A program made the translations under genes and the position numbers. Positions 1,847 through 18,870 of a stretch of 18,870 bases of DNA are shown one piece after another. Numbering within the stretch: position 1 is the stretch's first letter; each line of letters opens with the position of its first letter. Under the pieces are notes generated by a model that was given only the letters and a program-made list of their open reading frames with translations, did not search any database and had not been told where the DNA came from. The DNA is from a virus (Duplodnaviria > Heunggongvirae > Uroviricota > Caudoviricetes): IMG/VR virus record IMGVR_UViG_2740892232_000009, one strand, 5' to 3'.

Positions 1847-1847
1847 A

Positions 1848-2063: not shown

Positions 2064-2162
2064 CGCATCACCTCTGGCAGGCGCCAATGTTAGACTGAAA
2101 TTGACGCCCGATGTTGATTATTAATAATCAGCTATGAAGTTTTAATTTGAATACAATGCAAT

Positions 2163-2351: not shown

Positions 2352-2538
2352 GAACACCTCCATTATTATTTCCAGTGGTTCGTTTATTCCATCTTTCGAG
2401 TGCTTCTTTTTCACTTCCACCATAACCGGTTCGGGATTCGCATCCGTTACACTTCGCTCGGTAATATCCTGAAATGGCTTTCACCGTTACTGATGGACAA
2501 CCACAAAATGGACATGGTTTAACATTGTCATATCTCAT
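2344..2538 (-). CDS. ralR: Restriction-alleviation protein (Lar/RalR family, 64 aa)
   Basis: Translation MRYDNVKPCPFCGCPSVTVKAISGYYRAKCNGCESRTGYGG..., with the CPFCG and CNGC zinc-ribbon-like Cys pairs. ATG at 2538. Confidence 0.85.
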   Translation of the reverse strand: MRYDNVKPCPFCGCPSVTVKAISGYYRAKCNGCESRTGYGGSEKEALERWNKRTTGNNNGGVHV

Positions 2539-2594
2539 AATTTTTCTCATAAAAAATATTTCAAGTTGGCGGTGCATTACACCGCCAGACTGAA

Positions 2595-3404: not shown

Positions 3405-5997
3405 TTGCATATTCCTTAGCCCAGCGGGGCAGTGATAACGTCTTAATAGCTGGCCATTCATCGGTATTGAGGCAGTCAGCCAGGGTTCGCAGATTGCGGT
3501 GATATTCCAGCTGACCTGCCAGTTTTGCTTCTTCGCCCATCATGAAAATTTCAACCGGATAACGTCCGCATTCAATAGTTGTGCTGGCAACCAGAAAAAC
3601 GAAAGTTGGCTGCACTCCAAACTGTGCTTCATAACCGTCACTGTAGAATGCATCCTGAACGTGATAGCGGTAGTCGTAATAAGCGGTTTTGAATCGTTGA
3701 ATATCCGCCGTAGTTTTCACGTCCATGATCCAGTGAAATTCAGGGATAATTTTGTCCGGACGGCACCGACACAAAATTCCTGTTTCAGGATCTTCCCAGT
3801 AAATTGATGATTCAGCGTGTCCGGCGCTTTCAACAAGCCATTGCCCCAGCGGCAAAGCCATAACGCTTTGATACATCAGTTCAATTTTCCGGCCTTCTTC
3901 CGCAGTGATAACCATTTTTCCTGTGCTTGCGCATTCCATCAGAAACGCTTTCTCTTCTTCTTTTCCGGCGTTTGTACGGCGGTTAAATTCAGGTGCTACG
4001 ATAAAGCGGTTACTGAATTCTTCCGGTTCAAGTACCCGGCAGTGGAAAGCAGTTCCTAAATCGAGCGTTTTTGTCTTTGTGGTGTCCACGGGGGCATTTT
4101 TACGCCACAAATACAGTGCCGGAGTATCAGCAATGTCATCGAGCTGAGACTTACTGACACCGGGACCTGCGTGGTAATTCTCATTCGAAATTCCGTAATA
4201 AATACCTGGCTCTATGTCTTCTACGATTACGGGATCTGCGACTTCGCCAGTTTCATCACTGCAATCGCGATGCGGATCGCTGCCAGCATTCTCATTGTGC
4301 GGATGTTCAGCGCCTTCCATTTCCTCCGGATCATTTTCCTTAGCTTCAACCTGATTCTCTTCATCGAATGTTTCCTGGTTTGTTGCGTCGCCCATCACCG
4401 CACCACAGTCAGGGCAGTTATCCCCGCCAGTCTGGCCGTAGGCATTGCAGGCTATTTCCGGTTCCTGTTGCACTACTGGCTCAGGTTGTTTCATATCCGG
4501 GCTGGTTTTTTCCGTTTCTGGCTGGTTCTGGTACACAGAATCGCGAGTCTGGATCCCCTTAACCCATTTCGGATCGTTCGGGTCGCTAATTCCGTCAACA
4601 AATTCACCACGTGATGCAGCAAGCAATTTATCGGCATCGACAGGATTTTTTGATGGAATGTTTTTCCGGGCTTCATGGAGTTCTGCCCGCAGTTCCTGAT
4701 ATTTCGCATCAACAGAATTTACCTGTGACTGAGCATCCAGCGGCTGCGTGTCCTGATGATGTTTAGTTGCGTCCGGTTCCATTGTTTCAGCCTCTCCCTG
4801 TTCATCTGCCGTTGTTCCAGATGGTTGCAGTTTTTCTTCATCATCCTGTTTTCCTTCTTCTGTTACTCGCTGCGGCATCGGGGCAGAGGAGCGACCGCAG
4901 GCAATATCCACGATTTCCGGATCAGGGTTGGCATGATCGGTTTCAGTCAGTACTTTGTTCAGATATTCAGTGACGTGCGCGGGGATGACCTCGATCCCAA
5001 TTGGTGCTTCTTTTACGGACGCAACCACGATGGCGCGGGAATAATCCAGCCCGCCAGGCATGGTGATGAATTTGTCGCGGAAAACAGAAAAGGGCGGTTT
5101 ATTTTCAGCGATAATTTCCTCAATGCGTTTAGCGTGTGCCGGATGAAGGTTATAGATGTCCAGATCCATTGAACGGGCCAGTACGCCAGTGGCTACGTCG
5201 CGCGCCAGTGACGTCAGATCGTGTACGAAACCTTCGCCGCGATCGGTGAGGTTTCCGCCGCCAGCATTAGCACCGGAAGCCGTGCGAGTGATGTGTGAAA
5301 CACGATTACCCTTCATCCACTCTTTTGTCAGCAGTCCTCGATCGGTGTAGTCAGCGTTCAGGTATGCTTCGAAAAAAGCAGTTATCAGTCCCAGGTTTGA
5401 ATTACCAGGATTAGGGAAAACTTTGTCAGTGTCACGAACCAGTTTGTGGAGTTCGCGAATTTCCAGCGGGTCGAGCAGGCTGGTTTTGTGGGAAACAGCC
5501 AGGGCAGTAACAGCCGGTAGTTCTTCAGCCCGAGCAATGTGTAATGCCTGGAGTCCGTCGCGTGAAACGTGCGTTACCGGTTTTTCGCTGCCGTGTTGAG
5601 CAAGCCAACGAATGGGCAGTTCCTGGCCAGAAATTGGGAGTAGCATATTCTCCTCAATCTCAGTCATGTCTTCGCCGTTGACGTTGGTATTGCCTTGATA
5701 GTGAGCGTTGTCTGGTGCTGCTCCCGGTTTTAGTTCCCATGTCATGGAGTCTTTGCTGAGTTGATAGCGTTCACTCCAGGTAAAATCGATCTCACCTTCA
5801 GCGGGCAGGTCATTAACGACAGGAAAATTCGTGGCAACAGCTTTAAAATAGCTGCTCAGTTTTTTACCTGACTTAACGATCAGGTAGTCCAGAGTGGCAC
5901 AGGTCGATTCAAAATCGTTGCTTGCCCACAGGACGACGTCAGGTTCACCGGATGATTTTTTCGCTTTCCGTAACAGGAAGAGTGGTTTTGTGCTCAT
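3397..5997 (-). CDS. recE: RecE exonuclease VIII (866 aa)
   Basis: 866-aa ORF with acidic low-complexity middle and a C-terminal nuclease region, directly upstream of and overlapping recT. Matches recalled Rac RecE in length and sequence. Confidence 0.95.
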
Positions 5998-6098
5998 TGT
6001 TTTTTAACCTCAACTCAGATTAAAATTCGTTTTGTTCAGTGAATGATCTTGCCGGATACACACTGTTCATAGCCTGCGCCATACGCAGGCTATTTCTT

Positions 6099-6374
6099 TC
6101 AGATTTCACCTTTTAATTTCATTGCAATTAGAGTTGCCAGAAATTCGGCTTTTTTTTCTGCGGGCAGATTCTTTCCGATATGCACCAGGCACATTTTTTT
6201 GACACCTTCATCAAGTGTTTTTACGTTGCCTGATGGACCATCGATATCAACCACAGTGAATGGGGTTTCTTTATTTTCTGTTTTAATTACGTAGCCAATG
6301 CGCTTTCCTTCCAGATTCACCTCGTGAACAATGTCATCGGTAGTTACAACAGTGGCTTCATAATTGGTAATCAT
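6099..6374 (-). CDS. racC: RacC (91 aa), function unknown
   Basis: Translation MITNYEATVVTTDDIVHEVNLEGKRIGYVIKTENKETPF... ATG at 6374 preceded by AAGGAG. Confidence 0.85.
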   Translation of the reverse strand: MITNYEATVVTTDDIVHEVNLEGKRIGYVIKTENKETPFTVVDIDGPSGNVKTLDEGVKKMCLVHIGKNLPAEKKAEFLATLIAMKLKGEI

Positions 6375-6448
6375 GTTTTTCTCCTTAATTAAGGTTGAGC
6401 GAATACCTGCCATTTCTGGCATAAATTCAGTTTCGAATAGTCAATTAA

Positions 6449-6619
6449 TTAAAGTTCATGTGCCATCTGGTCTTTTTCGGCACAAGCTTCACTGCAATAT
6501 TTTCTCGGTTCGTCTTTTGATAAAATCCCGTGCATGAAGTGAAGCATTCTTTCAATAGCTTTGCTTTCTTCAACGTCTTTTTTGCAAAGGTGGTAAGCAC
6601 ATTTTATTTTCTTAGTCAT
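6449..6619 (-). CDS. ydaE: Small Cys-rich protein (56 aa), absent from the ORF track because it is under 60 aa
   Basis: Hand translation of the minus strand gives [56 protein letters not shown]. Start ATG 6617-6619 overlaps the kilR stop (6619-6621) by one base (ATGA). Stop TAA at 6449-6451. Confidence 0.75.
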   Translation of the reverse strand: MTKKIKCAYHLCKKDVEESKAIERMLHFMHGILSKDEPRKYCSEACAEKDQMAHEL

Positions 6620-6840
6620 CACCATGACTCCGCCTTTACAGGTAAACCATCACGACCGAGGAAGACTTTAATCATGCGGTCAGTAATGCATGTTTTTGTG
6701 GTCAGGTTACGAATATATAGTTTTCGCTTTTTAATATTGTTTGCCGAGGCAATATATGTCCGGCCTTCATGAAGAACATAATCGCCAGGAGTCACACACT
6801 GACGTGGTATTTCATCAGTTCCGAAGTGATGTGCAATCAT
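6619..6840 (-). CDS. kilR: KilR cell-division inhibitor (73 aa)
   Basis: Translation [46 protein letters not shown]... ATG at 6840 with GGAG 6 nt upstream; an in-frame ATG at 6852 is an alternative. Confidence 0.85.
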
Positions 6841-7281
6841 AATTATCTCCATTTTTACAAATGAACTTTGTTGATGCGGTGCCTGGTGCCTCCAGGTGAC
6901 TGCAACCAGTTAACAATTACAGTCGGCTTTCCCACCCAAACCAATAAGGACTAACATGACTTTTAACTGTGCCACGTGCGCTTAGCCGCATTCACCGCAT
7001 CACAAAATTCACTTTAAAAAGGGCGGACATCAGCCGAACTTCAAGAAAAAAACTGATGCCGCCAGGACTACACACAGTAATGTCGTTATTTACAACCGGA
7101 GGCGCACTCCCACCATTTAAATTTAACAGACAAGACCGACTCTTTATGGATATCGGAAATGCGCCTTCGTGTTGTGCCCGGTTTTATTTCACCACCTCCG
7201 GGCTTCGGTGGTCTCGGCTATACCCCTACAGCGAGAGCTTGTGTTAACATTTCAATACCCTTACAGTTGAGAGTTATTGAT

Positions 7282-7770
7282 ATGTTGGATGTATTTACTC
7301 CATTGTTGAAACTTTTTGCTAACGAGCCACTCGAAAGACTTATGTATACGATTATCATTTTTGGTCTCACTCTCTGGCTGATACCGAAAGAGTTTACTGT
7401 CGCATTCAATGCTTATACTGAAATACCTTGGCTCTTTCAGATTATCGTTTTTGCCTTTTCTTTCGTGGTCGCCATTTCCTTCTCAAGATTGCGAGCACAT
7501 ATTCAAAAGCATTATTCATTACTACCAGAGCAACGAGTATTGCTTCGTTTATCTGAGAAAGAAATCGCTGTATTTAAAGATTTCCTTAAAACAGGAAATC
7601 TTATTATCACTTCTCCTTGCCGTAACCCGGTTATGAAAAAATTAGAACGGAAGGGCATCATTCAACATCAGAGTGATAGCGCAAACTGTTCTTATTATCT
7701 CGTCACCGAAAAATACTCCCATTTTATGAAGTTATTCTGGAACAGCAGGAGTAGACGTTTTAATCGTTAG
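7282..7770 (+). CDS. sieB: Superinfection exclusion protein B (162 aa), membrane protein
   Basis: Translation from MLDVFTPLLKLFANEPLERLMYTIIIFGLTLWLIPKEF..., with hydrophobic N-terminal segments. ATG at 7282; the longer ORF-track start at 7159 is an unsupported upstream extension. Confidence 0.85.
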   Translation: MLDVFTPLLKLFANEPLERLMYTIIIFGLTLWLIPKEFTVAFNAYTEIPWLFQIIVFAFSFVVAISFSRLRAHIQKHYSLLPEQRVLLRLSEKEIAVFKDFLKTGNLIITSPCRNPVMKKLERKGIIQHQSDSANCSYYLVTEKYSHFMKLFWNSRSRRFNR

Positions 7771-7922
7771 CTTACTGTGTGCTTCTCCAACCATCGGCGC
7801 GCACCAGTTTCGGTTTTAAATGTTTTGCTTTTGGTATACGTCATGGCAGTGAACGTTCCATCCTGGTTGGGGAACACGCCGCACACCAGGGATTCGTTGT
7901 TGCCGAGGTCGATTTTTTGCAT
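7767..7922 (-). CDS. ydaF: Small protein (51 aa), absent from the ORF track
   Basis: Hand translation gives MQKIDLGNNESLVCGVFPNQDGTFTAMTYTKSKTFKTETGARRWLEKHTVS. ATG at 7920-7922, stop TAA at 7767-7769, convergent with and overlapping the sieB stop. Confidence 0.65.
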   Translation of the reverse strand: MQKIDLGNNESLVCGVFPNQDGTFTAMTYTKSKTFKTETGARRWLEKHTVS

Positions 7923-7932
7923 TTTGCGAATC

Positions 7933-8067
7933 TCACATCTTGTTGCTACGTATAGCGACTTCTGCCTGCCAGAGATCCCAGTCGTTGCTGCGTAAAGCCT
8001 GCACAGCCTGGTTGTAAGTGATACCGCAACAATCCATCAAATACTGAACTACTTCGTAATGCACCAT
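7933..8067 (-). CDS. ydaG: Small protein (44 aa), absent from the ORF track
   Basis: Hand translation gives MVHYEVVQYLMDCCGITYNQAVQALRSNDWDLWQAEVAIRSNKM. ATG 8065-8067 preceded by GGGGAGAGATAAG on the minus strand. Confidence 0.65.
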   Translation of the reverse strand: MVHYEVVQYLMDCCGITYNQAVQALRSNDWDLWQAEVAIRSNKM

Positions 8068-8234
8068 CTTATCTCTCCCCTTAACGCCGGGTGGCGGAAC
8101 TAACTGCTGCACTGCAAAATTTGAATCCCGCCGTCATGTTCATACGCCTCGGGCTGGCTACTTAACCCCTGACCACTGCCTGGTAACTCGAAGTATTGCC
8201 CTGCGTTCTGTGGGGCGGGGTGGGTTGGTAGGTA

Positions 8235-8276
8235 TATAATGTACTTTGTGTTCATTGTTGTAAAGTACTTTAAGTA
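8235..8276 (-). promoter_or_regulatory. Leftward pL-like promoter candidate with two operator-like palindromes (O1 8240-8252 GTACTTTGTGTTC; O2 8264-8276 GTACTTTAAGTAC)
   Basis: On the minus strand: -35 TTTACA (plus 8258-8263), 17-bp spacer, -10 CATTAT (plus 8235-8240). O2 is a perfect 6+1+6 palindrome; O1 lies in the spacer. The two sites start 24 bp apart. Confidence 0.5.
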
Positions 8277-8354
8277 CATTCTGTGTGTAAAAAAATGAGA
8301 TGGGATAAAGTGAAGCACAAACCCGGAGGGGGACGCTACCGGATTTATGCTGGT

Positions 8355-8774
8355 TTAAGAGGCTTTTTGTTTTTTCTTTCGTGCTAACTCTTCGTAAATT
8401 GCATTGTACTTCTGTTTTTTCTCCTCAAGAGTTTTTAAAAGTTCATCTGTCTCACTGTCAGGGAGCTCGTCCAGAAGGTCAATGATGATTTTTTGTCTTG
8501 GATTTAACTCCTGATAGAAACGTACCTGTCCACTTTCTTCTGTATCCTCTCCCAAAAGATAGGTTGGTGTTGTTCCAATGAGTGTTGCTAATTCCCTTAA
8601 TTTCTCTCGGCGAGGAATTGTTTCGCCATTAAACCATTTGCTAACCGCTTTTGGTGTTAATTTCATTCGACGGGCAATTTCTGCCTGCCTTCCATGTTGT
8701 TCATAACCAGCGTTTTCACAGGCTAGCGCAAGCCTACTGGCGAACTCTTTACGCGCTTTATCTTCATGAACCAT
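8355..8774 (-). CDS. racR: Prophage repressor, XRE/Cro-CI-type helix-turn-helix, no peptidase domain (139 aa)
   Basis: HTH-like segment QAEIARRMKLTPKAVSKWFNGETIPRREKLRELATLIG. Occupies the cI position, divergent from ydaS. ATG at 8774. Confidence 0.75.
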   Translation of the reverse strand: MVHEDKARKEFASRLALACENAGYEQHGRQAEIARRMKLTPKAVSKWFNGETIPRREKLRELATLIGTTPTYLLGEDTEESGQVRFYQELNPRQKIIIDLLDELPDSETDELLKTLEEKKQKYNAIYEELARKKKQKAS

Positions 8775-8853
8775 AAGTTCAATGATATTCGCTCTTGAAT
8801 GTACTGTCAGTTCTGTTATAGCATGTACTCAAAGTTCACATTGTGAGGGTGAT
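8775..8853. promoter_or_regulatory. Divergent racR / ydaS control region with two operator-like sites (O3 8801-8813 GTACTGTCAGTTC; O4 8825-8837 GTACTCAAAGTTC)
   Basis: Same half-site pattern (GTACT-N3-AGTWC) and same 24-bp spacing as O1/O2. Leftward promoter candidate: -35 CTGACA (plus 8805-8810), 17 bp, -10 TATCAT (plus 8782-8787), which would start transcription at or beside the racR ATG. Confidence 0.5.
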
Positions 8854-9108
8854 ATGAACCAGAAAACACTTGAAGATGTAATCAAAACTGTTCGCGTTTC
8901 TGTTGTGGCCGACGTTTGTGGTGTCAGCCAAAGAGCAATCTACAAATGGATGGATAACGGAAAATTGCCTCGCACAGAATATACCGGCGAAACAAATTAC
9001 GCTGAAAAAATCGCTCATGCATCAAACGGATTATTTTCTGCCGATGCAATTTTAACTATTGGCAAAAATAAAACTACTACGAAAAAGCTGATGGGAGTTG
9101 ATTCATGA
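8854..9108 (+). CDS. ydaS: Cro-like HTH protein in the cro position (84 aa from the ATG at 8854)
   Basis: ATG at 8854 preceded by GAGGGTG. HTH-like segment VADVCGVSQRAIYKWMDNGKLP. The longer start at 8782 would leave no room for a promoter beside racR. Stop overlaps the ydaT start (ATGA at 9105-9108). Confidence 0.7.
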   Translation: MNQKTLEDVIKTVRVSVVADVCGVSQRAIYKWMDNGKLPRTEYTGETNYAEKIAHASNGLFSADAILTIGKNKTTTKKLMGVDS

Positions 9109-9527
9109 AAATCAAGCATGAGCACATCGAATCAGTGTTGTTAGCCCTGGCTGCTGAAAAAGGGCAGGCATGGGTAGCCAATGCCATTACTGAAGAATAT
9201 CTGCGCCAGGGGGGCGGCGAATTGCCCCTGGTACCAGGCAAGGACTGGAACAATCAGCAGAATATCTATCACCGTTGGTTGAAAGGTGAAACGAAAGCGC
9301 AAAGGGAAAAAATTCAGAAACTGATCCCTGCGGTTCTGGCAATCCTTCCGCGCGAGCTGCGTCACCGACTCTGCATCTTCGATACCCTGGAACGCCGTGC
9401 ATTACTGGCGGCGCAGGAAGCGTTAAGTACGGCAATTGATGCGCATGATGATGCAGTCCAGGCCGTTTACCGGAAAGCGCATTTCAGCGGCGGCGGGTCT
9501 TCCGACGATTCTGTCATTGTTCATTAA
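9105..9527 (+). CDS. ydaT: YdaT (140 aa), co-transcribed with ydaS
   Basis: Translation MKIKHEHIESVLLALAAEKGQAWVANAITEEYLRQGGGELPLVPGKDW... Start overlaps the ydaS stop. Confidence 0.85.
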   Translation: MKIKHEHIESVLLALAAEKGQAWVANAITEEYLRQGGGELPLVPGKDWNNQQNIYHRWLKGETKAQREKIQKLIPAVLAILPRELRHRLCIFDTLERRALLAAQEALSTAIDAHDDAVQAVYRKAHFSGGGSSDDSVIVH

Positions 9528-9539
9528 GCAAAAGTTTCC

Positions 9540-10397
9540 ATGCTGTTTGTGCTTATTCTAAGCAACCGGGCAGCATCATACGGGGCAATTATGGCCGCAT
9601 TACCATACATGCAACTGTACATAGCTGATTACCTGGCTGACACCATGCATTTGTCAGCAGAGGAGCATGGTGCGTATTTGTTGCTGATGTTCAATTACTG
9701 GCAAACAGGAAAGCCAATACCTAAAAACAGGCTGGCAAAAATTGCCCGTCTGACTAACGAGCGATGGGCTGATGTTGAACCATCCTTGCAGGAGTTTTTT
9801 TGCGATAACGGCGAGGAATGGGTGCATCTTCGGATTGAGGAAGATCTGGCATCAGTCAGGGAAAAATTAACCAAAAAATCAGCCGCAGGAAAAGCATCTG
9901 TTCAGGCCAGAAGAAGCAGAAAGGAAGCAGATGTTCAAACAAAACAAGAGAGAAATTTAACAGGTGTTCAAACAGATGTTGAAGTGGTGTTTGAACATGA
10001 TGTCAACACAAAGGCAACTAATAAAGATACAGATAAAGATCTAAAAAAAGATCCCCCCCTAAATCCCCCCCGGGGGAATCGAGGTGTCAAAAAGTTTGAC
10101 CCTCTGGATATTGCTTTGCCGAACTGGATTTCTGTCTCGCTTTGGCGTGAGTGGGTTGAATTTCGCCAGGCATTGCGTAAACCGATTCGAACGGAGCAGG
10201 GCGCTAACGGGGCGATACGGGAGCTGGAAAAATTCCGCCAGCAGGGTTTTTCACCTGAGCAGGTGATTCGACACAGCATCGCCAATGAATACCAGGGCTT
10301 GTTCGCGCCAAAAGGTGTTCGACCTGAGACGTTACTCCGACAGGTTAACACCGTCTCGTTACCGGATAGTGCGATCCCGCCAGGCTTCAGGGGGTAA
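9540..10397 (+). CDS. ydaU: YdaU-like replication-module protein (285 aa), function not established
   Basis: Long ORF directly upstream of the DnaC-like gene. Alternative start ATG at 9591 has a slightly better upstream G-run. Acidic/basic low-complexity middle (KDTDKDLKKDPPLNPPRGNRG). Confidence 0.7.
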   Translation: MLFVLILSNRAASYGAIMAALPYMQLYIADYLADTMHLSAEEHGAYLLLMFNYWQTGKPIPKNRLAKIARLTNERWADVEPSLQEFFCDNGEEWVHLRIEEDLASVREKLTKKSAAGKASVQARRSRKEADVQTKQERNLTGVQTDVEVVFEHDVNTKATNKDTDKDLKKDPPLNPPRGNRGVKKFDPLDIALPNWISVSLWREWVEFRQALRKPIRTEQGANGAIRELEKFRQQGFSPEQVIRHSIANEYQGLFAPKGVRPETLLRQVNTVSLPDSAIPPGFRG

Positions 10398-10403
10398 CTG
10401 ACC

Positions 10404-11150
10404 ATGAAAAATATTGCGGCAGGCGGCATTCTTGAACGTATCCGTAGACTGGCCCCGCCACATGTAACCGCCCCATTCAAAACGGTAGCGGAGTGGCGCG
10501 AGTGGCAACTTTCCGAAGGCCAGAAACGTTGTGAGGAGATCAACCGTCAGAATCGTCAGTTGCGGGTGGAAAAAATTCTGAATCGCTCTGGCATCCAGCC
10601 ATTGCACCGCAAATGCTCGTTTTCGAATTACCAGGTGCAGAACGAAGGGCAGCGATACGCGTTGAGTCAGGCGAAATCCATCGCTGATGAACTGATGACC
10701 GGGTGTACAAATTTTGCGTTCAGCGGAAAACCTGGTACCGGGAAGAACCACTTAGCGGCAGCTATCGGGAATCACCTGCTGAAAGACGGTCAGACAGTGA
10801 TTGTGGTTACCGTGGCTGATGTTATGAGTGCCCTGCACGCCAGCTATGACGATGGGCAGTCAGGCGAAAAATTTTTGCGGGAACTGTGCGAAGTGGATCT
10901 GCTGGTTCTTGATGAAATTGGCATTCAGCGCGAGACGAAAAACGAGCAGGTGGTACTGCACCAGATTGTTGATCGCCGGACAGCGTCGATGCGCAGCGTG
11001 GGGATGCTGACAAACCTGAACTATGAGGCCATGAAAACATTGCTCGGCGAGCGGATTATGGATCGCATGACCATGAACGGCGGGCGATGGGTGAATTTTA
11101 ACTGGGAGAGCTGGCGTCCGAATGTCGTCCAGCCAGGAATTGCGAAGTAA
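10404..11150 (+). CDS. ydaV: DnaC-like AAA+ helicase-loader / replication protein (248 aa)
   Basis: Walker [11 protein letters not shown] and Walker [10 protein letters not shown] are visible in the translation. Position matches the lambdoid P/DnaC-like gene. Confidence 0.85.
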
Positions 11151-11172
11151 TTTTTACCGGGAGAAAAATTTA

Positions 11173-11934
11173 ATGGAGACTGTTTTTGACGCACTGAAAG
11201 CAATGGGAAAAGCCACATCCATAGAACTTGCTGCGCGACTTGATATCAGTCGTGAAGAAGTGCTGAACGAACTATGGGAACTGAAAAAGGCTGGTTTTGT
11301 TGATAAAAGCGCGTACACCTGGCGTGTGGCTGATAACAACGTTCAGCAGGAACAGCCAGCGCAGGCAGAACTGCCGGAAGAAACCACCACAGCAACAGTA
11401 GCGAAAATCTCAGAGTGCGATTTAACCGCGACGATTGAACAACGCGGACCACAAACGGCTGATGAGTTGGCTACATTGTTCGGTACCACATCACGCAAAG
11501 TGGCTTCAACGCTGGCAATGGCTATCAGCAAAGGTCGTCTGATTCGCATTAATCAGAACGGTAAATTTCGTTACTGCATACCGGGTGATAATTTACCAGC
11601 AGAGCCGAAAGTTGAATCGGTAGCGGAAACCGATGGTAAAGCCTTTCCTCAGCCAGCAGGTGTTGCGTTACCAGTACAGGAAGCTGCAACACAGGAAGAT
11701 ATTAAAACAGAAACTGTGGCTGATATTGTGCAGTCGTTGCCATCGTTTACTGAAACGCGAGCGGATGACCTGGTTTTACCATCGCTGCATATGGCAAACC
11801 GCGAATTGCGTCGGGCGAAAAGTCATGTCCAGAAGTGGGAGCGAGTCTGCGCCGCGCTGCGGGAGCTGAACAAGCACCGGGATATTGTTCGACAGATTAC
11901 GGATTCTTCCCGCCGTATTGTATCGGAAAAGTGA
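11173..11934 (+). CDS. ydaW: YdaW-like protein with repeated HTH-like segments (253 aa from ATG 11173)
   Basis: Translation [43 protein letters not shown]..., with a second similar segment [36 protein letters not shown] lies 9 nt upstream of the ATG. The ORF-track start at 11122 overlaps ydaV. Confidence 0.65.
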
Positions 11935-11949
11935 TTGCCGGAGGCGCTT

Positions 11950-12279
11950 ATGGCAAAAGTATTTACACAAGAAGGGCGGGAAAAAATTAAAGGGCAGGTT
12001 GTTGAACTCGTGCGCCATAGTGGGCGCGAGACGTTACGACAACTGGAAGCTAAGACAGGTGCGACAAGATATCTGATGAACCTTCTTGCCAGAGAATTGG
12101 TTGCGAGCGGTGATGTATACAACTCTGGTTACGGGTTATTTCCCTCAGAACAGGTTCGTAAAGACTGGCAAAACGCCCGCAAAAAACTATCAAGGGCAAA
12201 GGTGAAGAAACCGGTTGTGGTTGATCCTGACCTTATCTGGTCATTACCTGACGGAGAAATCCGTCGCCTTAGTCTTTGA
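11950..12279 (+). CDS. Hypothetical protein (109 aa) with one HTH-like segment resembling those in YdaW
   Basis: ATG 11950 preceded by GGAGG (11940-11944) with 5-nt spacer. Segment ETLRQLEAKTGATRYLMNLLARELVASGDVY. No family recognised. Confidence 0.55.
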   Translation: MAKVFTQEGREKIKGQVVELVRHSGRETLRQLEAKTGATRYLMNLLARELVASGDVYNSGYGLFPSEQVRKDWQNARKKLSRAKVKKPVVVDPDLIWSLPDGEIRRLSL

Positions 12280-12314
12280 TAATAGGTTTATAATGTTGAA
12301 AAAGAGTCTAATAG

Positions 12315-12347
12315 TTGACATTGTATGAAATATGATTGTTATATAAA
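12315..12347 (+). promoter_or_regulatory. Promoter-like element upstream of the NTPase gene
   Basis: Perfect -35 hexamer TTGACA at 12315-12320, followed 18-19 bp later by an A/T-rich -10-like stretch TTATATAAA (12339-12347), about 35 bp before the ATG at 12381. Confidence 0.45.
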
Positions 12348-12380
12348 ATGATTTTTTTGGATACTGTTTAAGGTAAACAA

Positions 12381-14639
12381 ATGAAACCAGAATACTTAAG
12401 AAAAATAGAATCATTGCAACGTGAGGTTGATGATTTCCATCCAGTGCTAAGAGCGCTTCTACCACGTTTGCCGACTGTTACACATGTTGAATATAAGCAA
12501 GGACCATCAGAAAAAGGTGCTGATTTTGTCATAATTAAACGAGATGAGGCATTAGACGAGGAAATATATATTGGTGTTATTTGTAAAGTTGGAAAGATAA
12601 TTCAGTCAAATAGTGAGGTTGAACGACAAATAGAAGAGTGTCAATTATATCCACGCTTTATTTCTTCTGGCTCTAAGAACATACATTTGAATGAAATTTG
12701 GGTTATTACTAATTCATCGATCTCAAATAATGCTCAAGAAAAAATTTACTTGAAATTCAAATCTACAAATATAAAATTTATAGAGGGTGAAAAAATATGT
12801 TCTTTAATCAGTAAATATTACCCAGAGTTTTGGGATTTCGAATCCATTAATTATGAACAATACTTAACAGATACATTGCAAACCATAAGTGATACACCTG
12901 AAAGCTCTTTTTTTGGTAGTGTTGGCATAAATAACCTTATTGATAGATATGTAAGCAAGGAAGATCATAAAAAACGCAGACACAGGCCGTTAAAACTGTA
13001 TAGTGTTGTGAGAGCCGAGAGATTTATTTTTTTAGAGGGAACCGTTGGCTCTGGGAAAAGTACTTTGCTGAAACAGTTAATTAGAAAAATAAAAGAAGAA
13101 TATTCTTACGAAAAAGACTACATCCTTCCAGTATTTTGTCAATACAAGGATGTTCTAGAAAAAAAACTTAATGTTGAAAATATAATACAAAGTGTGTTAA
13201 GTAAGTACAAAATACAACATGATGGGAATATTTTATTAATTGTTGATTCGGTGGATGAAGTAAAGGAATCACTTGAGGAAAGGCAAAACAACTTCAGGGA
13301 CATTGTAGAGAAAGTATCCAGGAATGATAAAATTCGATTACTAGTTGCTTCAAGAATTATGGATTCTCTTCAGGACTATGAAGTTATCGATCAGATGTTT
13401 GCAAGATACTCGATAATACCACTTAGCACAGGTCAAATAATCGACTTTGTAGATAAAATCTGCAATGACATTAAAATAACAAATAAACTTAAAAATGGTA
13501 TAGAAAAAACACCACTATTTAAGTTCATTCCCAGGACTCCAGTGAGCGCTATTCTTCTGGCAAGAATACTCTCTGATGAGATTAAAGAATTACCATCTAC
13601 AATGACAGAACTATACTCAAAATACAGTGAGATAGTATTGGGACGATGGGATACATCTAAGGGATTATTATCGCAAACAGAATATGATGTAATAAGTAAT
13701 ATATTAGTAGAAATTGCGATATTTATGATGGATAACTCTCTAAACTGCATATCAATTTCAGAAGTGCAGGACATGTTTTTAAATTATTTGGCCAAAAGAA
13801 ACTTGAATGTTGATGAGGACAAACTTTTCAAAAGACTAATTTATCGCAGTGAAGTAACAACAGTTAATGTTAGAAGTAATACGTTCTCATTTCTACACAG
13901 ATCATTCATGGAGTATTTTTACGCTGAAGGACTTAGGAAGCGTGGCCTAATAGACATAAATGATAATATTTATGATATTTATTGGGCAAATAGTTATTTC
14001 TTCTATTTTGGTTTGTTAAGAGACAATGAATATCTTATTGATAAAATTAATGAACTTAAACCTAGTAACGATAAAACAAGATTTTTAAGGTTATTTTATA
14101 ACGGTTCTTTTTATTTGGCTTCATATCTAACTCCGTATAAAAAAATAACGAGGGGAGTCCTTTTATCATATATAGATGCAGGTAAATTATATGTTGATAT
14201 TCTCAAGGGAAATACCGACATCCCGCTGAAGGAGTTTTCACCAGTAGCTCTTCTTTGTATTTTCACAAAGTGTTTAAGTAACAATTACGCATATGATTTT
14301 TTCAAATCTGCCTTGGAAGACTTGTCAGTTCAAATTGAACAATATGAGGAAATTGGTGAACATATTGATTATGCACGTTTCTTCATAGCATCAACACTGA
14401 ATGAGCTCGGGGATAAATCCGCATTTGATAGCTTAGTGGAAAAAAATAAATTAGGTGTTTTGATTAATTTAGGGATAACTCACGTTACAGACGACTCAGG
14501 GCTACTTAGCACTACGGTTGATAAGTACCTGAAAAAATTCAATAAAAAAGTACGAAGTAACCATGATATGTCTAATTATATATCTAAGTTATATGAGGAA
14601 TCTACAGGTTCCTTACGTACAAACCTGCAAATTCAATAA
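12381..14639 (+). CDS. STAND / NACHT-type P-loop NTPase (752 aa) with N-terminal restriction-endonuclease-like (Mrr-like) region; candidate antiphage defence protein
   Basis: Walker A LEGTVGSGKST (residues 218-228, nt 13032-13064). Walker B with the NACHT acidic pair LLIVDSVDE (286-294). Sensor-1-like LLVASR (320-325). N-terminal GPSEKGADFVII ... EIYIGVICK resembles the Mrr catalytic motifs. Gene is visibly AT-rich relative to its flanks. Confidence 0.7.
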   Translation: MKPEYLRKIESLQREVDDFHPVLRALLPRLPTVTHVEYKQGPSEKGADFVIIKRDEALDEEIYIGVICKVGKIIQSNSEVERQIEECQLYPRFISSGSKNIHLNEIWVITNSSISNNAQEKIYLKFKSTNIKFIEGEKICSLISKYYPEFWDFESINYEQYLTDTLQTISDTPESSFFGSVGINNLIDRYVSKEDHKKRRHRPLKLYSVVRAERFIFLEGTVGSGKSTLLKQLIRKIKEEYSYEKDYILPVFCQYKDVLEKKLNVENIIQSVLSKYKIQHDGNILLIVDSVDEVKESLEERQNNFRDIVEKVSRNDKIRLLVASRIMDSLQDYEVIDQMFARYSIIPLSTGQIIDFVDKICNDIKITNKLKNGIEKTPLFKFIPRTPVSAILLARILSDEIKELPSTMTELYSKYSEIVLGRWDTSKGLLSQTEYDVISNILVEIAIFMMDNSLNCISISEVQDMFLNYLAKRNLNVDEDKLFKRLIYRSEVTTVNVRSNTFSFLHRSFMEYFYAEGLRKRGLIDINDNIYDIYWANSYFFYFGLLRDNEYLIDKINELKPSNDKTRFLRLFYNGSFYLASYLTPYKKITRGVLLSYIDAGKLYVDILKGNTDIPLKEFSPVALLCIFTKCLSNNYAYDFFKSALEDLSVQIEQYEEIGEHIDYARFFIASTLNELGDKSAFDSLVEKNKLGVLINLGITHVTDDSGLLSTTVDKYLKKFNKKVRSNHDMSNYISKLYEESTGSLRTNLQIQ

Positions 14640-14650
14640 TAAATAGATTG

Positions 14651-14685
14651 TCACATTGAAGGTAACGTATCGACCTTCAATGTGA
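14651..14685 (+). terminator. Perfect 13-bp inverted repeat (TCACATTGAAGGT / ACCTTCAATGTGA, 9-nt loop) 11 bp after the NTPase stop; possible terminator
   Basis: Arms at 14651-14663 and 14673-14685. The downstream tract is only moderately U-rich, so intrinsic-terminator function is uncertain. Confidence 0.4.
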
Positions 14686-15007
14686 TGATTATCCTCTTGA
14701 TAATATAGCTTAAGCTACTTTCGACTTTCTGAGACAAAGAGATTGCAGAATGTATCAATCATAGTGAAGCTATCGTAAATGTTCGCACGTCGCTCAAATC
14801 AGATAGTCATATTTGAGTGAACTGCTTACTCAAAATGCTGGTTGGGGCCTGACTTAATACATCTGAAGAAGTGTTGGTTATGTTTGGCTGTTGTGTTCCA
14901 TTGCCAAAGAAAAAATAGATAAACTATACCCAATAGTTGTATTGAATCACTGACGAGACAGCCTCATATTTATCAGGACTGGTGTGCGTCCAATACAGGA
15001 GGTTGTC

Positions 15008-15097
15008 GTGCTGGTTCTCAAATGTGCGCTGGCTATTGCTGCTGTAATAGCAATTTATTGTCTTGCTGTTGTTCTTATGGATCGCCTTTCTGATTGA
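15008..15097 (+). CDS. Candidate small hydrophobic peptide (29 aa), single predicted transmembrane helix
   Basis: AGGAGG at 14997-15002, 5-nt spacer, GTG at 15008. Translation (M)LVLKCALAIAAVIAIYCLAVVLMDRLSD, stop TGA 15095-15097. Promoter-like TTGAAT (14942-14947), 17 bp, CATATT (14965-14970) upstream. Confidence 0.4.
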   Translation: MLVLKCALAIAAVIAIYCLAVVLMDRLSD

Positions 15098-15308
15098 TTT
15101 TATATTGGCGAGGTGACGGGAGTTAAGTAGAATTGCTGCGGGTGCTTGAGGCTATCTGCCTCGGGCATGAACACCAAAGGCAGATAGAGAAAAGCCCCAG
15201 TTAACATTACGCGTCCGGCAAGACGCTTAACATTAATCTGAGGCCAATTTCATGCTTTGCACATGTAGGTTAGCCTCTTACGTGCCGAAAGGCAAGGAGA
15301 AGCAGGCT

Positions 15309-15464
15309 ATGAAGCAGCAAAAGGCGATGTTAATCGCCCTGATCGTCATCTGTTTAACCGTCATTGTGACGGCACTGGTAACGAGGAAAGACCTCTGCGA
15401 GGTACGAATCCGAACCGGGCAGACGGAGGTCGCTGTCTTCACAGCTTACGAACCTGAGGAGTAA
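15309..15464 (+). CDS. hokD: Hok-family type I toxin (51 aa)
   Basis: Translation MKQQKAMLIALIVICLTVIVTALVTRKDLCEVRIRTGQTEVAVFTAYEPEE. AGGAG at 15295-15299 upstream of ATG 15309. An in-frame upstream ATG at 15252 gives the 70-aa ORF-track version. Confidence 0.85.
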   Translation: MKQQKAMLIALIVICLTVIVTALVTRKDLCEVRIRTGQTEVAVFTAYEPEE

Positions 15465-15471
15465 GAGACCG

Positions 15472-15493
15472 GGCGAGGGAGAAATCCCTCGCC
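15472..15493 (+). other. 9-bp stem with GAAA tetraloop (GGCGAGGGA-GAAA-TCCCTCGCC), 8 bp after the hokD stop; 3' structure of the hok mRNA or weak terminator
   Basis: Perfect complementarity read directly from the sequence; no U-tract follows. Confidence 0.45.
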
Positions 15494-15930
15494 ACCTCTG
15501 ATGTATTATGCATCCTCAACGCACCCACACTTAACCAGCTTTGGCGGGTTTATTTTATCTGTAAATATTTTTATAAAAATAATGCCCACGCACAGCATAA
15601 AACAAAAAGTATTACAGATAAAAAAGGAGCGTAATGTGCAGATTTGTTGTTTTCCATATTTACTCACCTTAATATGATTAATCCTGATAGGGTTGTTATT
15701 TCAGTGGTTTTCAAATGAGATATTATGGTGATCTGGTAGATTTGCATAACATTAAAATTTAATTTGTTTAACCGCTTTTAATAATAAGCGTTGTTTTTAT
15801 CCCAGCAATCTGTTGTTTGGTTTTTATTCCATCAATGTGGGGGCTTTACACTGGAATCAGTTTATTTATACTTTATACGTCGGCCTGAACAACTGGCATC
15901 TGCTGCACTGCGCCATCGAGAGATTGACAA

Positions 15931-16530
15931 ATGGCGCATATACAACTGGTCAAACAAACCTCTTCTGGTTTACTTCTCCCGGCGACGCCGGAGAGTTGCG
16001 ATTTCCTGCATCAAATCAAAATAGGTGAGTGGATACACGCAGACTTTAAGCGTGTGCGTAACTACGCATTCCACAAGCGTTTTTTCAAACTCCTGCAACT
16101 GGGATTCGATTACTGGACTCCGGTCGGTGGGGCGATCACGCCTCGCGAACGAGAACTGCTGTCTGGTTTCGTTGATTACCTGTGCGAATCAGTTGGTCGG
16201 GAACACACGCCAGCCCTGAGTGATGCCGCAGAGCAATATCTGAATACAGTTGCGACACGCAGAACTCGGGATACGGCATTGCTAAAGTCGTTTGAGGCTT
16301 TTCGCGAGTGGGTAACCATTCAGGCTGGATTTTACACCGAACATTTTTATCCGGACGGTAGCCATGGGCGTCGGGCGAAATCCATCGCTTTTGCGAATAT
16401 GGACGAAACCGAGTTTCAGCAGGTTTATAAATCTGTTCTGAATGTGCTGTGGAACTGGATTCTGTTCCGTAAATTTTCCTCTCCGGAACAAGTCGAAAAT
16501 GTGGCCGCGCAGCTGCTGGAGTTTGCGTAA
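15931..16530 (+). CDS. nin-region protein of unknown function (199 aa), upstream of and coupled to the YbcO-like gene
   Basis: ATG 15931; stop TAA 16528-16530 overlaps the next start (TAATG). Family not confidently recognised; position corresponds to the lambdoid nin region. Confidence 0.6.
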   Translation: MAHIQLVKQTSSGLLLPATPESCDFLHQIKIGEWIHADFKRVRNYAFHKRFFKLLQLGFDYWTPVGGAITPRERELLSGFVDYLCESVGREHTPALSDAAEQYLNTVATRRTRDTALLKSFEAFREWVTIQAGFYTEHFYPDGSHGRRAKSIAFANMDETEFQQVYKSVLNVLWNWILFRKFSSPEQVENVAAQLLEFA

Positions 16531-16820
16531 TGGTGGATTTACGTAAAGCGGCGCGGGGGCAGATGTGCACCGTCAGAATTCCTGGCTACTGCAATCACGA
16601 TCCGGAAACGTCTGTGCTGGCGCATTACCGACTGGCGGGAACGTGCGGAATAGCGACAAAACCACACGATATGCAGGCGGCGATTGCCTGTAGCTCATGC
16701 CACGATCTAATCGACGGGCGGGTAAAAACCAGCGATTACACCAAAGAAGAATTACGCCTGATGCATGCAGAAGGTGTTTTTCGCACACAAGAAATCTGGA
16801 GAAAGGAGGGATATTTGTGA
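16530..16820 (+). CDS. YbcO-like Cys-rich protein (96 aa), putative metal-binding nuclease family
   Basis: Translation MVDLRKAARGQMCTVRIPGYCNHDPETSVLAHYRLAGTCGIATKPHDMQAAIACSSCHDLIDGR... closely resembles recalled DLP12 YbcO. Cys spacing C13, C21, C39, C54, C57. Confidence 0.75.
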   Translation: MVDLRKAARGQMCTVRIPGYCNHDPETSVLAHYRLAGTCGIATKPHDMQAAIACSSCHDLIDGRVKTSDYTKEELRLMHAEGVFRTQEIWRKEGYL

Positions 16821-17359
16821 TTTACCCAACGAATACAGGAAAAAGCGGAGAACACCTTCGTCTCGCCACGCTGGAAAGTGTCTGGATTCAGGGCAAACTG
16901 CGTATGTGGGGGCGCTGGTCGTATATTGGCGGTGGCAGGTCAGGAAATATGTTCAATCAGTTGTTGGCATCCAAAAAATTGACGAAAACAGCCATCAATG
17001 AAGCCCTGCGCAGAATGAAAAAAGCGGGAATAGAGAAAGCTGAGCTGGAAGCGTTTTTGAGAGAGATGATCAACGGCAAGCAAAAGAGCTGGCTGGCGCA
17101 TTGTACTGATGCAGAGGCGTTATGTATTGATCGGGTCATAAGTGAGGTGCTGGCAGAGCATCCAGGATTGATTAGCGTCCTTCGGCAACGGTATGAGGGG
17201 CGGGGGATGACCAAACGCAAAATGGCTGAATTGCTAAATGATGCACACCCAGAGTGGTGTTTTAGCACATGCGAAAAGCGAATTGCTAATTGGTTGGCCG
17301 TTGCTGAGTATGCGCTATACATTCCCATGCGAGAATCATTCGCTCAAAAAACGGCTTGA
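16817..17359 (+). CDS. Q-like late-gene antiterminator (180 aa from GTG 16817)
   Basis: GTG at 16817 overlaps the YbcO-like stop (GTGA) and is preceded by AGGAGGG with 6-nt spacer. Translation contains ESVWIQGKLRMWGRWSY. Position is last before the tRNA / lysis region. The ORF-track start at 16697 is an out-of-context extension. Confidence 0.65.
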   Translation: MIYPTNTGKSGEHLRLATLESVWIQGKLRMWGRWSYIGGGRSGNMFNQLLASKKLTKTAINEALRRMKKAGIEKAELEAFLREMINGKQKSWLAHCTDAEALCIDRVISEVLAEHPGLISVLRQRYEGRGMTKRKMAELLNDAHPEWCFSTCEKRIANWLAVAEYALYIPMRESFAQKTA

Positions 17360-17444
17360 TTTTTTACGCGTAAACTGCTTCAATTTTGCTACGCTTCGCA
17401 AAGCTGTATCGCGAGGCGAATCAAGCGCAATTAAACTTTAATAG

Positions 17445-17475
17445 AACCCGCCATCAAGCGGGTTTTGTTGTTATT
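17445..17475 (+). terminator. Rho-independent terminator about 85 nt after the Q stop
   Basis: Stem AACCCGC (17445-17451), loop catcaa, GCGGGTT (17458-17464), followed by TTGTTGTTATT. Confidence 0.7.
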
Positions 17476-17620
17476 ATGGTGTGATATAAGAAACGACATT
17501 TAATATTGCCTTCAAAATAAATTTGTTTATATATTGTCGCGTATATTTTAAGTGAAGGTGAAATGTTCACATAAAATAAAAATACATAAATAAATTTACA
17601 TAGCTTGACGCAAAGTGTTG

Positions 17621-17648
17621 TTGCGATTGGAATATTAAATCGTATCAT
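17621..17648 (+). promoter_or_regulatory. Promoter-like element upstream of the tRNA pair (possible tRNA or late promoter)
   Basis: -35 TTGCGA (17621-17626), 16-bp spacer, -10 TATCAT (17643-17648), within a very AT-rich stretch. Predicted start near 17655, at the base of the hairpin. Confidence 0.35.
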
Positions 17649-17655
17649 CGAAAAC

Positions 17656-17721
17656 GGTTCTGAGGGGGAACTCTTCTTTGCTCGGTGATATCGCTCGGTG
17701 ATATCGCTCCCCTGAAGAACC
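17656..17721 (+). repeat. Long imperfect hairpin enclosing a tandem 13-bp direct repeat (GCTCGGTGATATC x2 at 17680-17705), ending 3 nt before tRNA-Thr
   Basis: Outer arms GGTTCTGAGGGGG (17656-17668) and CCCCTGAAGAACC (17709-17721) pair at 11 of 13 positions including one G-T wobble. Each repeat unit contains a GATATC palindrome. Confidence 0.6.
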
Positions 17722-17724
17722 AAT

Positions 17725-17800
<76 letters not shown>

Positions 17801-17803
17801 TAT

Positions 17804-17878
<75 letters not shown>

Positions 17879-18241
17879 GCATTTAAAACAAGCCTTATTG
17901 TATTACGGCACTGGCGTATTTTTTTATTACGTGGGAGCAGGTTGTTTTGAAAAAGCATTCTGTTCTCTGGCTATGATTTGAGGCCGGGTGTAGCCTCAGT
18001 GCTAATTTTTTACGGCAGCAGAATGGTGCATTATCGGTGGAGATTTTGTATTTCCTGGCAGGGTCGGTGATGCATCATTTTGGTGTTGTAAAAGCACCAC
18101 AGAGGCGCTCCTCAGTGCGAGGGTGGTTTAAAGAGTCGGTTTAGCGGGAAACCACAGTATCCATGCAGCACGGAATACTTCGGGAGGCACCCGACGCCTC
18201 GGTTTAATAACAATTAAAAAATTCATCCCTTGCATTGACCA

Positions 18242-18267
18242 ACCGCCATATCTGGCGGTTTTTTTTA
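18242..18267 (+). terminator. Canonical rho-independent terminator
   Basis: Stem ACCGCCA (18242-18248), loop TATC, TGGCGGT (18253-18259), followed by a run of eight T. Confidence 0.8.
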
Positions 18268-18654
18268 TTCCTTTCTCAGGACAAAAAAAGACACGAGCAT
18301 ACAGGAATACTCGTGGGACAACGTCCTTTAGATAGCAATTTGCGAGAGGGTGAAAAGTAGCGCGGTCGTCGGATTAAGACCGCGGGACAAAGTCCATGAA
18401 GAATAATAAGTATTGGCCCCTTCTGGGGACATGTTCATACTACTAAGCTTCAGAAGTGGTTTAAATCATCAAATTAACCTTAATTTTCGATAAGTCTTAT
18501 TTCATTTCTTTGCGCCACACCTGGCGCGCATCAAATAACGCCACGCAAAGGGCATCTGCGGATGCCGGTGCTTTTGACGGGGTGTTTTTTACGGGCCGCT
18601 GGTGGCCATTTTTTGTTTCCATTACACAGCGCCCGCATCTGCGAGGTGGGGGTT

Positions 18655-18870
18655 ATGAAATCCATGGATAAGTTAACAACAGGTGTCGCCTATGGCACCT
18701 CCGCAGGCAGTGCTGGCTACTGGTTTTTACAGTTGCTCGATAGAGTCACGCCCTCACAGTGGGCAGCAATAGGTGTGCTGGGTAGTCTGGTGTTTGGCCT
18801 GTTGACGTATCTGACAAATCTTTATTTCAAGATTAAAGAAGATAAGCGTAAGGCTGCACGGGGAGAGTAA
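18655..18870 (+). CDS. Phage 21 S-type pinholin (71 aa) with dual-start MKSM motif; first lysis gene
   Basis: Translation [81 protein letters not shown] precedes ATG 18655; second in-frame ATG at 18664. Stop TAA is the last three bases of the window. Confidence 0.85.

Follow-up and report, generated by a model that had tools for sequence, protein, structure and literature searches.

Among the bacterial proteins related to NLRs, bNACHT25 of Escherichia coli is a member of clade 6 that carries a PD-(D/E)xK DNase effector and responds to the phages T2, T4 and MS2 as well as to other single-stranded RNA phages of the Emesvirus group (10.1101/2022.07.19.500537; PMC12169576). Infection, or expression of the MS2 coat or L protein, leads to DNA degradation, and the substitution D48A abolishes both this degradation and defence (PMC12169576). 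Sensing is indirect in that it needs the host protein DnaJ and the interaction of DnaJ with DnaK, which the authors read as guarding (PMC12169576). The coding sequence, amplified from an ECOR strain with its endogenous regulatory region 'where possible', confers defence in K-12 (PMC12169576). Here, we describe an allele of this gene in a stretch of viral DNA of 18,870 nucleotides (nt), IMG/VR record IMGVR_UViG_2740892232_000009, which is referred to as the window and holds a Rac-type prophage of E. coli. The allele very probably constitutes an anti-phage defence cassette of a single gene, a moron that occupies a variable slot between a DUF977-family gene and the hok/sok module of this lambdoid prophage.

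Two further described systems invite comparison. Like the Avs (AVAST) proteins, the product is a predicted STAND NTPase made of one polypeptide, with a nuclease effector at the N-terminus and a sensor at the C-terminus, and its action would have an abortive-infection-type outcome. Unlike these proteins, it combines an NTPase of the NACHT clade with an NCH1 domain, and the published sensing by bNACHT25 is indirect via DnaJ, whereas Avs binds terminase or portal. Membership of Avs/AVAST was rejected, as no Avs model matched in PADLOC.

With regard to location, the defence hotspots of P2 and P4 (PMC9122126; 10.1101/2022.05.12.491691) provide the model. As in those elements, conserved phage genes bracket a short interval that differs between relatives, validated defence genes are found among the content, and the guanine plus cytosine (G+C) content of the cargo lies below that of the backbone. 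The present interval differs from them in belonging to lambdoid, Rac-type elements, in its position between the replication genes and the hok/nin region, and in a left junction that cuts a backbone gene.

The bNACHT25 allele and its low-G+C segment

An earlier note on this DNA had described a single island of low G+C content from 12,280 to 15,500, with an NTPase gene, a small hydrophobic peptide and hokD as three cargo units. The compositional drop it had seen is real; its extent has to be redrawn. In sliding 500-nt windows, G+C amounts to 0.30-0.33 across 12,251-14,750, compared with 0.48-0.53 in the left flank (10,001-12,250) and 0.50 at 15,001-15,500. When the limits of the segment are set by homology breakpoints against related prophages and composition is computed afterwards, the resulting 2,598 bp (12,268-14,865) have a G+C content of 32.0%, against 45.9% in the remainder of the window; each flank has about 49%. 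The lowest stretch of the same length elsewhere in the window reaches 0.418 (n=1,108; mean 0.457, standard deviation 0.025), and the segment sits about 5.5 standard deviations under this mean. Codon usage agrees: G+C at third codon positions is 0.268 in the NACHT gene versus 0.41-0.61 in ten other genes of the window. The stretch thus lies far outside the variation of the rest of the window, and the shift is no chance fluctuation. The accessory insert, foreign in composition, extends from 12,268 to about 14,865 and contains one gene.

The left edge given by the earlier note was nearly exact, as homology with related prophages stops at 12,267. The right edge lay about 640 bp too far downstream, since homology with prophages carrying other cargo is back at 14,866 and the stretch from 14,866 to 15,500 has a G+C content of 47.6%. 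The position assigned to the island holds: it lies between the replication genes (ydaU, ydaV, DUF1627, DUF977) and a module of DUF1367, DUF1364 and DUF1133 (Q-like) genes.

The one long open reading frame (ORF) of the segment is intact, and its product aligns without gaps to WP_001702659.1, with 743 of 752 residues identical (98.8%). This accession, which is bNACHT25 of E. coli ECOR11 (Kibby et al. 10.1101/2022.07.19.500537; Conte et al. PMC12169576), is annotated at the same position in strain LC-1302-2020 (locus L004). Both proteins have 752 residues and share the PD-(D/E)xK, NACHT and NCH1 arrangement (Table 1), D48, the Walker A and B motifs, H506 and S508. The nine substitutions (window to bNACHT25: I108V, R235K, V265I, N315S, I318V, I447M, S499T, T590A and K609H) spare all of these residues, including H506 and S508, the positions whose mutation hyperactivates bNACHT25 (10.1101/2022.07.19.500537). 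Residues 1-107 are identical in the two proteins. At the DNA level, the segments of the window and of L004 are 97.3% identical and lie behind the same truncated DUF977 gene in a Rac-type prophage; they differ in what follows, which is the hok module in the window and an IS3 insertion sequence (IS) in the L004 lineage.

Conservation across the family points in the same direction. E15, D48, K69, G223, G225, K226, D289, D292, E293 and H506 are invariant in 16 homologues down to 32% identity, and all are kept in the window protein, whose Walker A motif reads GSGKS (residues 223-227) and whose Walker B motif reads DSVDE (residues 289-293). The Pfam match to Mrr_cat in the nuclease domain is sub-threshold (E=0.0064; 17 bits against a cut-off of 21). 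NCBIfam holds no specific family for the protein, and a sequence search of the PDB returned no solved relative. Judged by its NACHT core, NCH1 domain, nuclease and near-identity, the protein is an orthologue of bNACHT25 in bNACHT clade 6. Its gene is, by the same comparison, an allele of a known gene, and the feature is already known at gene level; the exact window protein is public as 'NACHT domain-containing protein [Escherichia coli]'. The NTPase that the earlier note had counted as cargo does lie in the replaced segment, but it is not anonymous.

Junctions and occupants of the slot

Alignments of two related prophages with other cargo (L002 and L003) run along the window to 12,266/12,267 and set in again at 14,866. 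In the nucleotide alignment, the left junction is exact and falls directly after 12,267, inside the DUF977 reading frame. Past this point, the frame consists of four foreign codons and a stop (to 12,279), where the relatives encode about 35 more residues; the alignment thus identifies the insertion as the cause of the truncation of this upstream gene. The right junction is blurred and lies within about 14,790-14,866. Clear homology sets in from about 14,845-14,866, and the short motif TCGCTCAAA hints at backbone remnants from about 14,790. A 7-bp hairpin (GACGGAG-AAAT-CCGTC) at 12,249-12,266 in the DUF977 coding sequence is kept in the relatives, with the junction at its 3′ foot; a second hairpin, at 14,790-14,850, was not significant (z=-1.0).

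A junction repeat search found no direct or inverted repeat pair and no target duplication bracketing 12,268 and 14,865, the best pair being a 14-nt inverted repeat with 86% identity well within the segment, and no recombinase gene is present among the ORFs of the segment. Transposition and site-specific insertion were rejected because terminal repeats, target duplications and a recombinase of its own are all missing. The lack of bracketing repeats and of a recombinase therefore favours replacement by illegitimate or flank-guided recombination, and the cassette would have entered the prophage by such a route and not by transposition.

The slot is variable, as the earlier note had suspected. 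The NACHT segment is found in 18 of 5,426 complete E. coli genomes, and in a sample of 60 records taken down the ranking, covering cargos of about 2.5 kb or less, the interval from DUF977 to hokD has at least 11 other contents. These contents include a DUF5677 protein; an AIPR-family protein; one or two hypothetical proteins; a hypothetical protein with an HTH regulator; an alpha/beta hydrolase; QueH; DUF7167 with three or four hypothetical proteins (the CFT073 type); KilA-N; DUF4014 with hypothetical proteins; and IS elements. In the isolated phages Tritos and mEp460_ev081, a gene of about 445 amino acids lies in the same slot on the opposite strand. Every cargo examined is lower in G+C (0.36-0.44) than the flanks (0.47-0.53), with the NACHT segment being the most extreme.

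Several of these occupants have recognisable links to defence. PADLOC assigned the mEp460 slot gene to PD-T7-1 (E=4e-157) and the Tritos slot gene, which has an FRG domain, to the candidate system PDC-S15 (E=1e-98), and it matched the AIPR slot protein to AbiU (E=1e-23). Including bNACHT25, four of the seven cargos examined are known or candidate defence genes (bNACHT25, PD-T7-1, PDC-S15 and the AIPR/AbiU-like gene), as a raw count within this sample. The other cargos (DUF5677, a pair of HEPN/RES-NTD-like and GNAT-like proteins, QueH, the alpha/beta hydrolase and DUF7167) carry no assigned role, and no PADLOC defence model matched the DUF5677 protein or the two L003 proteins.

Some of these occupants merit mention in their own right. 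At 3624-5603 of L003, a 320-residue protein with a weak match to the HEPN/RES N-terminal domain (NTD) stands beside a 333-residue protein with a weak GNAT match. The DUF5677 protein (L010, 2163-3188) and the DUF7167 cluster of CFT073-type loci are uncharacterised and could be defence candidates.

Alignment against Rac-like prophages places the slot boundaries at 12,267 and 14,866, where breakpoints coincide, and the contents differ among the relatives; conserved flanks thus enclose variable content, the pattern that defines a hotspot. Judging from these alignments and contents, the slot behaves like a prophage defence hotspot and is probably a lambdoid one.

K-12 Rac, which the earlier note had described as carrying lysis-gene remnants and trkG in place of this cargo, does not bear on the matter in that way. 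The K-12 element (L006, MG1655) is collinear with the window up to the equivalent of 11,622, inside the DUF1627 gene, and resumes inside the Rz gene 8.7 kb on. A single deletion of 8.7 kb, ending in rzpR, has removed DUF977, the cargo slot, hok, the nin/Q-like genes, the holin and the lysozyme. Because the alignment gap runs from DUF1627 to Rz, K-12 shows deletion of the slot rather than a different cargo, and it was rejected as evidence of alternative content. What is called 'ydaW' in K-12 (L006, 12753-13313; window, 11122-11934) corresponds to the 5′ portion of the DUF1627 gene and does not represent DUF977. As for trkG, it is also present in close relatives of the window prophage, further downstream and after the lysis genes.

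A limited literature search yielded no paper describing the DUF977-hok slot and none pairing 'Rac prophage' with NACHT. Work by Brenes and Laub on E. coli prophage defence systems reportedly exists and could already describe this slot. While the hotspot principle is well established, the DUF977-hok slot itself may be undescribed. In the bNACHT25 paper, prophages are never mentioned (PMC12169576).

Spread, expression signals and proposed function of the cassette

The 18 E. coli copies of the NACHT segment are always single and always chromosomal. Beyond E. coli, a protein of 92% identity is encoded in Citrobacter sedlakii, in a small island that also contains a fragment of an integrase, an element of the IS3 family and a zeta toxin, conjugative plasmids of Enterobacter carry 75%-identical DNA, and more distant NACHT homologues are spread across Gammaproteobacteria. 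In a contig collection with one genome per species, a single locus matched, on a plasmid of Enterobacter adelaidei. A phage collection gave no match to the segment even in distant mode. The homologue has a G+C content of 33% in the Enterobacter plasmid and the Citrobacter island alike, whatever the surroundings. As this value of about 33% is constant across the three contexts covered (E. coli, Citrobacter and Enterobacter), the low G+C content belongs to the gene lineage. DNA homology with the C. sedlakii locus is limited to 12,290-14,707; since only these short flanks are shared with this non-prophage context, the mobile unit is, as far as the alignments delimit it, the gene together with flanks of about 90 nt on its upstream side and about 70 nt on its downstream side.

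This unit appears to bring its own expression signals. The 113-nt spacer upstream of the gene has a G+C content of 23% and contains a candidate promoter with a perfect TTGACA at 12,315-12,320, 16 nt from the TG of an extended -10-like element, TGnTATATA (12,337-12,345). Both elements are kept in the C. sedlakii locus, where DNA homology begins only at 12,290. A Shine-Dalgarno (SD) sequence, AAGG, lies at 12,371-12,374 ahead of the ATG. Downstream, a strong hairpin starts 7 nt past the stop codon and falls within the 68 nt of downstream DNA common to the Citrobacter locus; none of 200 shuffled sequences was as stable. It is probably a terminator or an RNA-stability element.

Given the near-identity to bNACHT25, we infer by analogy that the window allele works by the same mechanism. 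In the lysogen, the gene would be expressed from its own promoter at a time when the early-right operon is shut down, with its transcript ending at the downstream hairpin. The protein would act as a STAND/NLR-like switch that, as in bNACHT25, senses phage infection via DnaJ and turns on its N-terminal nuclease. The activated nuclease would degrade cellular DNA and thereby halt phage production, again as in bNACHT25, and the prophage would gain by shielding its host from unrelated phages.

Several observations weigh against a working defence cassette. The TTGACA element lies 19 nt from the -10 hexamer, which is long, and a simple consensus scan did not list the site; for these reasons, the promoter stays a candidate. 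The downstream hairpin has no clear U-tract. The window allele is nine residues off the tested protein, and the defence activity ascribed to it is that of the ECOR11 allele. PADLOC, used with its 2023 models, returned weak, generic P-loop matches only for the NACHT protein (HerA at 23.6 bits, mad8, VakA and TRIP13), which probably reflects that these models do not capture the bNACHT25 clade. Among the 18 copies in E. coli, six have a split or truncated gene (L005, L007, L008, L018, L019 and L020), so that loss or inactivation is frequent, although the window copy is intact. Finally, H-NS often silences foreign DNA of high AT content in E. coli, meaning that expression in the source strain is not guaranteed.

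Observations of this kind could also be read to mean that the gene is an inert passenger, i.e. AT-rich DNA that is silent (for instance bound by H-NS) or decaying in a degenerating prophage. The very low G+C content of the segment, the disruption of one third of the E. coli copies, the integrase of the window prophage cut by ISEc40 and the truncated DUF977 gene would all fit such a view. Yet the ORF is intact over 752 codons with every family-invariant residue kept, 12 of the 18 copies share 99.3-99.9% DNA identity although their strains differ in host and country, and bNACHT25 with its endogenous regulatory region 'where possible' defends in K-12 (PMC12169576). We therefore regard an inert passenger as unlikely and retain the defence cassette as the explanation of the locus. 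As to the six broken copies, the ORF is frameshifted or split in four, an IS3 lies at the 5′ end of the fifth, and the sixth shows an IS1-associated deletion. They could stem from a cost that the gene imposes or from indel errors that long-read assemblies make in AT-rich homopolymers.

Table 1. Coordinates of the cassette, its domains and the adjoining backbone features in the window
Feature	Position	Strand	Basis
DUF977-family gene, truncated	11950..12267	+	Pfam DUF977 E=2.4e-16; RefSeq pseudogene, C-terminus missing
Replaced low-G+C segment	12268..14865	+	BLAST breakpoints vs loci L002, L003; nucleotide alignments; composition
Candidate own promoter, TTGACA 12,315-12,320 + TGnTATATA 12,337-12,345	12315..12345	+	read from sequence
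bNACHT25-allele gene, 752 aa	12381..14639	+	743/752 identical to WP_001702659.1
PD-(D/E)xK / Mrr-like nuclease domain, aa 23-143; D48 at 12,522-12,524	12447..12809	+	Pfam Mrr_cat + invariant residues
NACHT NTPase core, aa 214-331	13020..13373	+	Pfam NACHT 36.7 bits (cut-off 26.7); NPHP3_N 37.3 bits
NCH1 C-terminal helical domain, aa 576-741	14106..14603	+	PF22728 E=1.2e-38, 133 bits, nearly full model
Strong hairpin, 18-bp stem including perfect 13-bp inverted repeat	14646..14690	+	RNA fold -23.2 kcal/mol, z=-5.0
Conserved prophage backbone with hok module	14866..15906	+	92-94% identical in L002, L003, L009, L010 (different cargo)
Small hydrophobic ORF, 29 aa (MLVLKCALAIAAVIAIYCLAVVLMDRLSD)	15008..15097	+	GTG start; AGGAGG at 14,997-15,002; alignment
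Promoter-like site for hok/mok mRNA, TTGGCG-17 nt-TAGAAT	15105..15133	+	consensus scan
hok mRNA leader / sok region	15140..15314	+	Rfam RF01794, 115.8 bits (gathering score 59), E=7.9e-27, full model
mok-type frame, 70 aa, ends at hokD stop	15252..15464	+	ORF list; in-frame extension
hokD, 51 aa	15309..15464	+	Pfam HOK_GEF 81.7 bits; RefSeq hokD
aa, amino acids.

The backbone, the host prophage and implications

Downstream of the slot, the hok module and the small ORF belong to the prophage and not to the cassette. As judged from the features in Table 1, the module is complete, with a toxin ORF, an overlapping mok frame and a sok/leader RNA. The promoter-like site lies 7 nt ahead of the start of the Rfam match, where homology with hokW of Stx phages begins; the RF01794 match is reported on the hok strand, Sok itself being antisense to that leader. 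From about 15,120, the module is 93% identical to hokW/mokW/sokW of the Stx phage 933W, and the annotations of the phages Rac, 933W and VT2-Sakai place mok, hok and sok at the corresponding position. K-12 Qin hokD (relF), in contrast, matches only from about 15,295 on, and the region upstream of it differs.

The small hydrophobic ORF, for which the earlier note had proposed 37 residues, is better read as 29 residues, as the proposed start codon (GTG at 14,984) is GTA in all six relatives with other cargo. The 29-residue frame is kept in nine of ten other loci that share the region and is frameshifted in L002; in phage HannyBb, no SD-start match for it was found. It has no Pfam or NCBIfam match. 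Older GenBank records list it as 'putative membrane protein' on more than 300 contigs, and it is unannotated in the RefSeq records examined. Changes in this region are few, some synonymous and some conservative, and the surrounding non-coding DNA is equally conserved, which is why conservation cannot establish that the frame is coding. The frame adjoins the hok promoter on its upstream side and occurs in many lambdoid prophages and phages whatever the cargo. On account of this position in conserved backbone, it was rejected as island cargo.

These features also decide the fate of the single island of 3.2 kb proposed by the earlier note, in which the NTPase gene, the small hydrophobic peptide and hokD would have been acquired together. 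The three are adjacent and on the same strand, each has plausible start signals, and the hok region has one low-G+C patch (0.37 at 15,501-16,000). The small ORF and hokD nevertheless lie in backbone with a G+C content of about 48% (47.6% at 14,866-15,500) that is 92-94% identical in prophages with unrelated cargo. The stretch from 14,866 to 15,906 is present in prophages that have AIPR, DUF5677, two hypothetical genes or no annotated gene in the slot instead, and the hok region has a match in 4,845 of the 5,426 E. coli genomes as against the 18 with the NACHT segment. Conversely, prophages of the ECOR11 type have the NACHT gene with no hokD module next to it but IS3 instead. Because homology with prophages of other cargo resumes at 14,866, the three units are not one island; joint acquisition, to which we give next to no credence, is already refuted by the breakpoints.

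A functional pairing of the NACHT gene with hok/sok, either as an addiction element that stabilises the slot cargo or with Hok as a second executioner, would be a separate matter. In most prophages sampled, hok/sok lies directly downstream of the slot. K-12 Qin has relBE directly upstream of hokD. Nothing in the sequence couples the two transcription units, however, a hairpin lies between them, and the gene lacks an adjacent hokD in ECOR11-type prophages. Moreover, bNACHT25 works alone when cloned (10.1101/2022.07.19.500537; PMC12169576), and hok was not enriched near defence systems in a survey (10.1101/2025.08.07.668861). Such a pairing is thus very unlikely. From their position in the alignments, hok/sok and the small ORF are neighbouring backbone features outside the one-gene cassette.

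The window as a whole matches E. coli chromosomes, the best match being strain CFSAN061771 (99.1% identity over 729-17,421) with a Rac-type prophage adjoining ttcA. The gene order is intR, xisR, rcbA, ralR, recT, recE, racC, ydaE, kilR, sieB, ydaF, a repressor/cro pair, ydaT, ydaU, ydaV, the DUF1627 gene, the DUF977 pseudogene, the NACHT gene, hokD, DUF1367, DUF1364 and DUF1133 (Q-like), with the lysis genes and trkG farther along. At the start of the window, the 3′ end of the integrase gene is interrupted by an ISEc40 element (1-717; IS630 family, DDE_3 transposase), which has copies of 99.7% identity in many E. coli genomes, leaving an int ORF (665-1846, minus strand) of 393 instead of 411 residues. 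The 14 best-matching genomes listed, out of 17 that share at least 80% of the window, all match only from 729, and the insertion appears specific to the source strain. The window prophage is probably excision-defective. Beyond 17,421, the window departs from its closest genomes and the match goes on as a second piece, the remainder (17,422-18,870) including a P21-type holin S gene that starts at 18,562. Because of this departure, we regard the late region as mosaic relative to CFSAN061771 by sequence comparison.

Placing bNACHT25 in a defined 2.6-kb slot of a Rac-type prophage adds an instance of a known phenomenon and little new mechanism. A broader proposal, that the interval between DUF977 (at the Ren position) and hok/sok of Rac-type and other lambdoid phages and prophages is an undescribed defence hotspot whose uncharacterised occupants are new anti-phage systems, is possible but tentative, and we would sooner expect it to fail than to hold. 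If it were true, the DUF5677 protein, the HEPN/RES-NTD-like and GNAT-like pair, the DUF7167 cluster, the alpha/beta hydrolase, QueH and possibly the 29-residue peptide would be new systems. The slot also houses validated defence genes in isolated lambdoid phages, PD-T7-1 among them, and, with the same flanks present in thousands of E. coli prophages, it can be searched cheaply for new defence genes. For the prophage itself, a testable question follows: as a lambdoid element, it possibly depends on DnaJ and DnaK for its own replication, and it may thus have to avoid triggering its own DnaJ-guarding bNACHT25 at induction.

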